This document shows positions 2,286-3,694 of a stretch of 64,000 nucleotides of DNA, piece by piece. The position numbers and the translations under genes were made by a program. Numbering within the stretch: position 1 is the stretch's first letter; every line of letters starts with the position of its first letter. The stretch is from a virus (Duplodnaviria > Caudoviricetes): IMG/VR virus record IMGVR_UViG_3300020048_000093, positions 13,745-77,744 of that record; one strand, 5' to 3'. The notes beneath the pieces were generated by a model. It worked only from the letters and a program-made list of their open reading frames with translations, was not told where the DNA came from and did not search any database.

Positions 2286-2455
2286 CTGTAACCTGCGAAC
2301 ACGCTTCAACATGTAACGCGGCAATGTACTGCACCCATGCAAAACCACACGAGCCGATTTTACCGTGGAAAGCAAATGCCATTAAGAAAATGTGCGACTA
2401 CAACCATGCTTGTGACTACACTTGCGAGGTAGTCAAATGTGAGCCGGTAAAATGA
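2282..2455 (+). CDS. Small Cys/His-rich protein (57 aa; not in ORF track)
   Basis: MTVTCEHASTCNAAMYCTHAKPHEPILPWKANAIKKMCDYNHACDYTCEVVKCEPVK*; coupled to the YopX stop. Confidence 0.65.
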   Translation: MTVTCEHASTCNAAMYCTHAKPHEPILPWKANAIKKMCDYNHACDYTCEVVKCEPVK

Positions 2456-2472
2456 CACAATTGTACACAAGG

Positions 2473-2501
2473 TAGACCGTAAAAAGTTAAAGTGGTATAA
2501 T
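2473..2501 (+). promoter_or_regulatory. Sigma70-type promoter for the RNA cluster
   Basis: TAGACC (2473-78), 17-bp spacer, extended -10 TGgTATAAT (2493-2501), 14 nt upstream of the first tRNA-like element. Confidence 0.8.
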
Positions 2502-2515
2502 GATTTAAGTGGACA

Positions 2516-2599
2516 GGAAGCGAGGCGCAATGGGCGCAAAGAATGAAGGCGGCAATGGATGCCCGGAAATCCACGCGGGTTCGACTCCCGCCGCTTCCA
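2516..2599 (+). ncRNA. tRNA-like element with unpaired anticodon arm (type II geometry)
   Basis: Perfect acceptor GGAAGCG/CGCTTCC+A, D stem GCGC/GCGC, variable hairpin TGGAT/ATCCA, T arm GCGGG-TTCGACT-CCCGC. The 17 nt at the anticodon position do not pair. Confidence 0.7.
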
Positions 2600-2604
2600 T
2601 TTTC

Positions 2605-2675
2605 GCCTGGTTAGTTAAACGGTATAACTGCTGACCTGTAATCAGCAATTGCGGGTTCGACTCCTGCACCCGGCT
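2605..2675 (+). tRNA. tRNA-Thr(UGU), atypical (C33, one acceptor mismatch, no encoded CCA)
   Basis: Acceptor GCCTGGT/ACCCGGC (6/7), D stem GTTA/TAAC, anticodon stem GCTGA/TCAGC with loop CCTGTAA, T arm GCGGG-TTCGACT-CCTGC. Confidence 0.85.
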
Positions 2676-2990
2676 CGATGCTTCTTAGCAAGGCGCATCA
2701 GGACCATTAGCGCGGGCGCACGGGATTGGTCTCCACGTGATCGAAGCGCGGCAAAGACCTGGCAACGGGGATGCACCAAGTGGCATGACCACCAGGCAGT
2801 ATACCGGCGTGCTACACACCGGAACGAACGGAATCGAACGTCCGTTATGGCACGCCACCGAAAAGACGACGCGGCGGTCGGTTCTCCGGACACAGGGGAA
2901 GGGCAGATCAAGAGGATTCGTGAAAGGGATCCCGCCGTTCAGTCGGACAGATTCCTTTCGTGTCCCGTCGATTCGGGAAACTGCCCATAA
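2676..2990 (+). ncRNA. Putative structured ncRNA (~310 nt)
   Basis: GC-rich, no RBS-led ORF, dense hairpins and a crossing helix pair (see findings). Confidence 0.55.
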
Positions 2991-3012
2991 CATACAGTAG
3001 TCGGAGGTTCAT

Positions 3013-3174
3013 ATGACCGAAGCGTGTCCATATTGCTTAAAGCCTATAACATGGATGCGCAACATCGAGTTCGAACTGATTATGGTCGAACGCGAAGTTA
3101 CTGAAGTGATAACTGAGAGCGGACGGAAGATTAAAGGTCAGAAGCCGCATATATGCCAAAAGGAAGGGGAATAG
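3013..3174 (+). CDS. Small putative Zn-binding protein (53 aa, CPYC...HIC; not in ORF track)
   Basis: RBS ggagg; MTEACPYCLKPITWMRNIEFELIMVEREVTEVITESGRKIKGQKPHICQKEGE*. Confidence 0.8.
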   Translation: MTEACPYCLKPITWMRNIEFELIMVEREVTEVITESGRKIKGQKPHICQKEGE

Positions 3175-3407
3175 TGGGACAACCGGCAAAGCCAGAGCTG
3201 CACGAATACATCGATGACCTTTTCCGTCAAGAAGTATTCGGCAGCGTGACCTTCCGCTTCCAGAAGGGGATTCTTGAGGGGATAAGCGAAAACCTTGAAA
3301 TAAAGATGCCAGATATCGTTGACGCCTACCGGGCGGGAGATACCCTATTAAAAAAAAAGGTTCTGATAGTACGCAGGAACCAAATACAAATGGATAAAAT
3401 CGATTGA
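3174..3407 (+). CDS. Hypothetical protein (YezD/DUF2292-like FGSVTFRFQKG segment)
   Basis: GTG overlapping the upstream TAG; motif resemblance by eye only. Confidence 0.6.
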   Translation: MGQPAKPELHEYIDDLFRQEVFGSVTFRFQKGILEGISENLEIKMPDIVDAYRAGDTLLKKKVLIVRRNQIQMDKID

Positions 3408-3694
3408 ATACCTATATTTACGGGTTAATCATAGCGTTGTTTGCTATATTGCTGCTGATACTTGCGGTAGGGTCGGCATGGATCAATCTGTTTGACGAGG
3501 AAGCCATAATGCAATGCAAAAAGTGCGGGGAAAGTGTAAAATACATAAAGAGTCATGACAACACAGAAGTGTATACCGTTGAAACAACCATCATACAGGT
3601 GGTAAAGAGCAACGGGAGAGAAGTGGGCGGGTATCTGCTCCATGTATGTGAGGCAACAGGAAAGTACAATGACACCAACAAAGAAACCGACTAA
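3404..3694 (+). CDS. N-terminal TM helix plus CxxC...HxC domain paralogous to 3013..3174
   Basis: Hydrophobic first ~30 aa; CKKC...VVKSNGREVGGYLLHVC aligns with the 3013 protein. Confidence 0.7.
   Translation: MNTYIYGLIIALFAILLLILAVGSAWINLFDEEAIMQCKKCGESVKYIKSHDNTEVYTVETTIIQVVKSNGREVGGYLLHVCEATGKYNDTNKETD

Follow-up and report, generated by a model that had tools for sequence, protein, structure and literature searches.

A modular, conserved non-coding region behind a phage tRNA gene is a candidate cassette of small structured RNAs

Positions 2677-2990 of the window (the whole 64,000-nt stretch of DNA analysed here, taken from an IMG/VR virus record of 77.7 kb that has terminal repeats) form a real, delimited and conserved non-coding region that is modular and has no entry in the RNA catalogue. 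We explain it best as the distal part of a small RNA cassette, horizontally mobile, that starts with a promoter at 2473-2501. We consider it reasonably probable (about 0.6) that it comprises at least four separately conserved, exchangeable small RNA units that are co-transcribed with a tRNA at the head of the packaging operon and are comparable to RNAC and RNAD of T4. The finding is a well-delimited candidate and not a demonstrated new RNA class.

The region lies between a tRNA gene and the packaging genes

On the plus strand, the promoter is followed by a tRNA-like element (TLD1), a tRNA-Thr(UGU) gene, the region itself and then the ribosome-binding site and start codon of the next gene (Table 1). 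Small early-type ORFs lie upstream of the promoter on the same strand, including one for a YopX protein (1911-2285). The packaging module starts at 3013 with three small genes, followed by terS (PF03592) and terL (PF17289). No terminator-like site was found between 1500 and 4700. The initial annotation had described the region as GC-rich and as following tRNA genes and a strong extended -10 promoter. The GC content of the region is 0.57-0.62 compared to 0.43-0.49 in the flanks, 10-15 points higher, in agreement with this description. The promoter was also located, as a match to the consensus; three promoter-like sites were found in 3.2 kb, compared to 4.5 expected from shuffles. Only one true tRNA precedes the region, identified by both ARAGORN and Rfam, and the element upstream of it is tRNA-like.

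Table 1. Features of the cassette and its surroundings, and parts of the region matched by contigs of runs X5 and X10. Positions are those of the window.
Feature	Position	Strand	Details
Sigma-70-type promoter, extended -10	2473-2501	+	TAGACC, 17-nt spacer, TG, TATAAT; 10/12 matches plus TG, consensus match only
tRNA-like element (TLD1), 84 nt	2516-2599	+	ARAGORN at relaxed threshold only; partial match to Rfam tmRNA
tRNA-Thr(UGU), CCA not encoded	2605-2676	+	ARAGORN; Rfam RF00005, 53.8 bits
GC-rich non-coding region	2677-2990	+	
5' hairpin, from the first base after the tRNA	2677-2699	+	2677-2681/2695-2699 with 2683-2686/2690-2693; -6.6 kcal/mol, z -2.12, 9/200 shuffles as good
Unit A, hairpin GGACCA/UGGUCU with GC-rich loop	2701-2732	+	2701-2706/2727-2732; z -1.23
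Unit B, CCUGG/CCAGG enclosing AUGC/GCAU	2753-2797	+	2758-2762/2793-2797, 2771-2774/2783-2786; z -0.89
Unit C, optional, composite	2798-2899	+	hairpins 2804-2811/2815-2822, 2827-2832/2841-2846 and 2882-2887/2895-2900; core 2848-2881; z -0.86
Unit D, four-way junction	2900-2987	+	-37.2 kcal/mol, z -3.36, 0/200 shuffles as good
Unit D, closing stem	2901-2906/2981-2986	+	
Unit D, small hairpin	2907-2909/2915-2917	+	
Unit D, 13-bp arm	2919-2931/2950-2962	+	variable tip
Unit D, T-arm-like hairpin	2963-2967/2974-2978	+	loop UCGAUU
Shine-Dalgarno GGAGGT (3003-3008) and ATG 3013	3003-3015	+	opens packaging module; 53-aa gene conserved in TerL relatives
Matched part (X5 r16)	2706-2799		150 unlike bases before
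Matched part (X5 r17)	2753-2900		60 unlike bases before, 87 further bases after
Matched part	2770-2929		
Matched part	2842-2903		
Matched part	2849-2881		inside a 1094-nt contig
Matched part	2848-2879		
Matched part	2900-2986		

The cassette is absent from relatives of the phage

We compared 17 viral contigs with 52-73% TerL identity, many of which retain the genes from 3013 onward. In those with 59-73% TerL identity the downstream genes are retained, but neither a tRNA nor any trace of the region is present. No tRNA was found in the 15 TerL relatives scanned, and Rfam found nothing in the ten that were searched. Similarity to 2460-3012 was likewise absent from the 15 scanned relatives and from the whole records of the five closest. 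In three of the closest relatives, the exact position of the cassette is occupied by an ORF of 114-135 aa without Pfam domains (L003:4118-4519, L004:1326-1733 and L006:4116-4460). The absence from relatives makes the promoter, TLD1, the tRNA and the GC-rich region look like an inserted, lineage-specific cassette. Relatives of the YopX protein are at most 43% identical, and nothing similar to the region was found on their contigs.

Searches of larger collections gave no homologue. No useful match came from blastn and nhmmer searches with the region in 166 loci, which comprised TerL relatives, YopX relatives and contigs with tRNA-like elements, and the cultured phages searched at E<=10 gave only chance 27-nt matches inside Klebsiella phage genes. 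Exact and degenerate 20-25-mers from 2768-2787, 2853-2877, 2901-2920 and 2955-2976, together with the X10 junction described below, found no homologue in IMG/VR; patterns from 2768-2787 and 2901-2920 in JGI metagenomes, and from 2901-2920 in GTDB genomes, gave no real match. A covariance model of unit D recovered only itself from 641 kb of phage loci. The 20-mer GGGCAGATCAAGAGGATTCG is present in eight unrelated metagenome or MAG contigs (L168-L175) that have nothing else in common with the region; by a rough estimate it is commoner than expected by chance, and it may lie within a conserved coding motif.

Parts of the region recur separately in wastewater contigs

Positions 2300-3500 were compared to Logan contigs of four runs (X2, X3, X5 and X10) picked via the run index; the comparative evidence is confined to about 20 short Logan contigs, whose differences were read from a table that does not list all of them. 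Run X3, from the same study as the run that best covers the stretch, matched the phage exactly wherever its contigs covered it. X2 contains a close strain, in which tRNA-Thr continues into the region (2649-2851, 7 differences). In X5 and X10, wastewater runs from two studies, many short contigs match parts of 2706-2986 at 80-100% identity and are unlike it beyond (Table 1). The X5 contigs have a word depth of 4-19 compared to at most 1.8 for the phage's own flanks, indicating that they come from other, more abundant genomes. X10 is labelled RNA-Seq and was flagged as probably DNA, and among the runs that contain the stretch none is recorded as RNA in the run index.

A joint takes 2797 straight to 2900, omitting 102 nt (2798-2899), and two more contigs have the nine bases CCACCAGGC (identical to 2789-2797) directly before 2900; at least two contigs have this arrangement. 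One contig starting at 2900 is identical to the window over 87 nt (2900-2986). In X10, a TLD1-type element takes the place of unit D: its start, ...GGACACAGUACAGGAAGCGAGGCC, comes after the core 2848-2879. The similarity ends at 2986, and the sequence downstream differs. The limits of the matched parts define four units: A (2701-2732), B (2753-2797), C (2798-2899) and D (2900-2986).

The conserved block is non-coding

The region had been annotated as free of any ORF led by a ribosome-binding site before 3013, and this was borne out: the first start codon with a strong Shine-Dalgarno sequence is ATG 3013. Besides this one, only GTG 2920, which opens 26 codons, has any motif resembling a Shine-Dalgarno sequence. 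Four of the six frames are open across the region because the stretch is GC-rich, and the GC content by codon position is flat (0.61, 0.59 and 0.59). Two of these four frames, 2649-2990 on the plus strand and 2685-2993 on the minus strand, had no relatives among 5.8 billion proteins, and no Pfam match was found in any of the open frames. The related contigs carry indels of +1 (after 2736), -1 and -1 (2810 and 2812), +1, +2 and +1 (after 2837, 2838 and 2846) and -8 (at 2930). With net changes of +1, +2, +4 and -8 per related contig, no reading frame survives, and the conserved block is therefore non-coding. A protein-coding gene was rejected on the lack of an RBS-led start and of codon-position bias, the non-triplet indels and the absence of homologues for the two of four frames searched.

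Unit D folds exceptionally well and some variants preserve pairing

The initial annotation had pointed to a dense run of stems. These stems are present, within 1 nt of where they had been placed, but their density is not beyond chance: the minimum free energy (MFE) of the whole region is -114.3 compared to -106.4 +/- 5.4 kcal/mol for dinucleotide shuffles (z -1.46), and 10 of 100 shuffles were as good. The minus strand of the whole region folds about as well (z -1.11). Folding unit by unit revealed that only 2900-2987 is exceptional, the other pieces having z values of about -0.9 to -2.1. A search of the region against Rfam, which the initial annotation had proposed as a check of novelty, found no known family even at E<=10, so that the region is absent from that catalogue. 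With Rfam 15 (4227 models) and 324 nt submitted, there was no match at gathering scores and none at E<=10 save a pair on the minus strand; these two matches within 2677-3000 were at chance level (12.3 and 11.8 bits, E 7 and 8.3).

Unit C has a core at 2848-2879 that recurs in four contigs with unlike flanks. In its hairpin 2827-2846, three contigs from two studies (X5 r17, X5 r18 and X10 r2) carry both A2832C and U2841G, which change an A-U pair to C-G; X5 r18 has only one further difference in 160 nt. The loop of this hairpin varies from 8 to 11 nt, and RNAalifold on the reconstructed rows retains the hairpin. The single-sequence MFE structure pairs 2841 otherwise and is contradicted by the double change. 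In the hairpin 2804-2811/2815-2822, the changes at 2810-2816 of the type seen in X5 r17 retain the outer CCGG/CCGG stem and shorten the inner stem. Since the same letters occur as a loose end in X10, this variant is real. The MFE helix 2806-2814/2848-2856 was rejected as incompatible with U2813G and A2852C, which makes the fold drawn for unit C tentative.

Variation in units A and D is also consistent with their pairing. In unit A, C2731U in the X2 contig leaves G2702 paired, as G.U. For unit B, no difference was listed within 2758-2798 in four contigs. In the long arm of unit D, U2953C is present in two studies and changes G2928.U2953 to G-C. An 8-nt deletion at 2930 occurs together with G2950A and U2953C, and the reconstructed variant still folds the 13-bp arm with a shorter tip. 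A single A follows the 3' strand of unit D, and the short D-like hairpin contains GGAUUCG, a stretch positioned like the D-loop analogue of tmRNA. Of the other substitutions, about 10 of 19 are in loops or linkers of the unit scheme. The compensatory evidence is thin, comprising one clean double change together with consistent single and indel-linked changes, all in the same direction. The region is non-coding, has no Rfam match and is conserved with non-triplet indels and a few pair-preserving changes, and it is therefore best read as a structured RNA that the catalogues do not contain.

A proposed route from a common transcript to small RNAs

Extra small RNAs without an explanation have been a familiar feature of phage tRNA regions ever since T4. 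We propose that the 5' hairpin and units A, B, C and D may be exchanged, gained and lost between related elements, and that they would be transcribed together with the tRNA from the extended -10 promoter. Processing of the tRNA 3' end at 2676/2677 (also given as 2675/2676) would set the 5' end, where the hairpin begins. The tRNA-processing enzymes (RNase P and the 3' enzymes) might then cut out the cloverleaf-shaped unit D and perhaps act at other junctions, and the products would remain in the cell as stable small RNAs, in the manner of T4 RNAC and RNAD. As there is no terminator downstream, this processing would also cut the tRNA transcript apart from the packaging mRNA.

RNAC and RNAD in the tRNA region of T4 are small non-coding RNAs of unclear role beside phage tRNA genes of the same strand, presumably from a common transcript (PMC3014915). 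In the phage studied here, the promoter is followed on the plus strand by the tRNA-like element, tRNA-Thr and the region, and no terminator intervenes. The two are likened by position and description, without sequence or model comparison, and the present cassette differs in heading the packaging genes of an uncultured 78-kb phage. It adds RNA units that are in no catalogue, and this small sample shows that the movement of such units between phage-like genomes is block by block. Should unit D indeed be treated as a tRNA by the cell, it would provide a simple test system for how phages use host tRNA-processing enzymes to excise other RNAs.

As to what the RNAs do, a tRNA-shaped decoy and a binding partner of host factors are guesses. 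We also entertain, as a speculation that is more likely wrong than right by a good distance, that unit D and the anticodon-less element at 2516-2599 represent widespread, undescribed non-decoding tRNA mimics of phages, either providing RNase P/Z 'punctuation' by which neighbouring small RNAs are released or diverting, as decoys, host factors that bind tRNAs or cut them, with units A-C as new exchangeable RNA families alongside.

Alternative explanations of the region

Once the tRNAs have been removed, the 2677 hairpin and the units could instead constitute a cis-acting structured 5' leader of the packaging operon, which protects or regulates the mRNA of the 3013 gene, terS and terL through stability, processing or antitermination rather than working as free RNAs. 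The lack of any terminator-like site from the promoter to terL, the end of unit D only 16 nt before the Shine-Dalgarno sequence and the start of the hairpin right after the tRNA are consistent with such a leader. However, the related contigs are unlike the phage after 2986 and before the units, so that conservation tracks the units rather than the downstream gene, relatives carry the same packaging genes without the cassette, and no riboswitch or leader family in Rfam matched the region. We therefore regard a leader as unlikely. It is compatible with our preferred reading of separate RNA units, which may also act in cis on the packaging mRNA.

Another alternative, built on the initial annotation, is a single ornate RNA of about 310 nt, in which a long helix (2888-2900/2952-2965) is crossed by GGGCAG/CUGCCC (2901-2906/2981-2986) to form a pseudoknot, and which may represent a new class of large phage ncRNA. 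Standard pairs allow both helices to be drawn, there is no Rfam family, and a tRNA is adjacent, as is often the case for GOLLD RNAs, which are found near tRNAs and in prophages (PMC5737381). The crossed arrangement was not supported. One strand of the long helix is missing from the forms that lack 2798-2899, and the contig starting at 2900 has unit D unchanged over its 87 nt. U2953C breaks A2899-U2953 of the long helix and improves the local arm. With its enclosed hairpin, the proposed helix reaches -20.9 kcal/mol, or -30.7 at best in a nested fold, to which the crossing stem contributes no more than -8.1. This compares to -44.0 kcal/mol for the nested alternative, in which GGGCAG/CUGCCC is the closing stem of the unit D four-way junction. 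Together, the absent strand, U2953C and the energies lead us to reject the pseudoknot and the picture of one RNA, to which we assign a very low probability; the whole-region z is unexceptional, and the pieces occur separately and in other combinations in related contigs. Each GOLLD or ROOL RNA (RF01998 and RF03087) is one molecule of about 580-800 nt that contains many conserved junctions as well as pseudoknots. In contrast, the present region has 310 nt, separable parts, an unsupported pseudoknot and no Rfam match at E<=10, which places it outside this class.

A site acting at the DNA level, such as a cos/pac or terminase-binding region upstream of terS or another protein-binding or recombination site, would explain a conserved non-coding block directly upstream of packaging genes. 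It is nevertheless highly improbable. The changes keep RNA-type pairing, no repeated binding-site motifs or terminal inverted repeats were found, and the block is absent from TerL relatives. Moreover, the G.U pairs would be A.C mismatches on the other strand, and the plus strand of unit D folds better than its minus strand (-33.1 kcal/mol, z -2.48). The G.U pairs, the lower energy and the pattern of variants thus favour the plus strand.

It is equally hard to credit that the region is functionless passenger DNA, either GC-rich sequence acquired with the tRNA or a decayed copy of the 114-135 aa gene of the relatives, with hairpins as in any GC-rich sequence. The whole-region fold that is no better than shuffles, z values above -1.3 for units A-C, the relatives without the block and the lack of homologues in IMG/VR, JGI metagenomes, GTDB genomes and cultured phages would fit this explanation. 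However, two studies yielded other, more abundant genomes that keep pieces of the region at 80-100% identity while their flanks differ. The compensatory change, the indel-compensated helix and the z of unit D (-3.36) also speak against passenger DNA. In addition, tblastn of the region's four open frames against the relatives' loci that bear the 114-135 aa ORF found no similarity. A MITE or IS remnant was rejected, as there are no terminal inverted repeats and no target duplications.

Unit D compared to tRNA-shaped RNAs

Unit D is not recognised as a tRNA: it gave no Rfam tRNA match at E<=10, ARAGORN was silent at default and moderately relaxed thresholds, and the 6-bp closing stem and 6-nt UCGAUU loop depart from those of tRNAs. 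It resembles the tRNA-like domain of tmRNA (RF00023; permuted form RF04321) in shape only, through its closing stem, one long arm and T-arm-like hairpin. In contrast to tmRNA, unit D has G3-C70 and no G3.U70, a 6-nt loop for the 7-nt T loop and two unpaired bases before the 3' strand. A tag reading frame, pseudoknots and any match to tmRNA or tRNA models are all lacking in 2677-3000, which sets the region apart from tmRNA. The mascRNA and menRNA of MALAT1 and NEAT1 (RF01684) are alike in that a terminal cloverleaf unit of a longer structured transcript could let RNase P define the ends. Those RNAs are eukaryotic, however, and the only RF01684 match (14.8 bits, E 5.3) was on TLD1, not the region.

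The tRNA-like element TLD1 resembles a tmRNA 3' end

TLD1 lacks an anticodon arm but comprises an acceptor stem of 7 bp (GGAAGCG/CGCTTCC), a D-like stem and a T arm. Its 3' half resembles the 3' end of tmRNA, and Rfam aligned the 3' 70 nt to tmRNA at 19.1 bits, compared to a gathering score of 47. The 23-nt 3' end, consisting of the T arm and the 3' acceptor strand, has 43 exact matches in viral contigs. In most of these the identity extends to 27 nt, comprising the end of the spacer, the T arm and the 3' acceptor strand, and the sites are tmRNA 3' ends. TLD1 thus has its T arm and 3' acceptor strand in common with real tmRNA genes. Its acceptor pair is A3-U70 instead of G3.U70, and it has its own perfect 5' acceptor strand. 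From these features, TLD1 looks like a tmRNA 3' end rebuilt as a self-contained, tRNA-shaped RNA. No tmRNA was called by ARAGORN, and the Rfam tmRNA models matched only 2400-2602 (19.1 bits, again below 47) and 2575-2727 (14.8 bits). The region showed no similarity to the tmRNA bodies in loci L045-L087. A permuted two-piece tmRNA with tRNA-Thr as its spacer was rejected, there being no downstream 5' acceptor strand or tag frame and TLD1 being self-complementary.

Seven other viral contigs (L060, L064, L069, L074, L077, L080 and L081) bear small elements whose acceptor and T arm are the same (GGAAGCG...CGCTTCCA). These elements are multi-copy in several contigs, with three in L069 and three in L077, one of the latter with the acceptor GGAACCG. 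On these contigs, each element is preceded by a CCCGGCGAAUCGGGG-type hairpin and lies within a GC-rich, gene-free gap. The gaps adjoin recombination and replication genes (RecT, ERF, YqaJ and a replisome organiser), not packaging genes. On the minus strand of L074 (12514-13665), one such element is directly upstream of a gene with an RNA ligase domain (PF09414, E 6e-15), a pairing that hints at tRNA repair.

Other tRNA-shaped genes were seen on the viral contigs. Circularly permuted (two-piece) tmRNA genes (RF04321) are present at L049:14223-14407 on the minus strand (107 bits) and at L068:1146-1504 on the plus strand (82 bits), and a standard tmRNA at L062:1222-1580 (112 bits). The Rfam tRNA model matched 125 nt at L087:9077-9201 on the minus strand and 119 nt at L070:7205-7323 on the plus strand. 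The genes at these long matches are tRNA-shaped, with the D arm and the T arm set apart by an insert of about 50 nt, and the acceptor GGGAGCG/CGCTTCC of the L087 gene gives a G3.U70 pair.

Two pairs of 11-nt direct repeats, each with one mismatch, were also noted around the region. The gene start at 3013 (TGACCGAAGCG) reappears within it (2738-2748/3014-3024), and the 5' part of TLD1 reappears in the hairpin behind tRNA-Thr (2519-2529/2687-2697). As signals, these repeats (D2 and D3) and a 10-nt complement (2588-2597/2868-2877) were rejected because, by a rough estimate, such lengths are expected by chance in 600 nt. The two repeat pairs may be due to chance or may be scars of cassette assembly.
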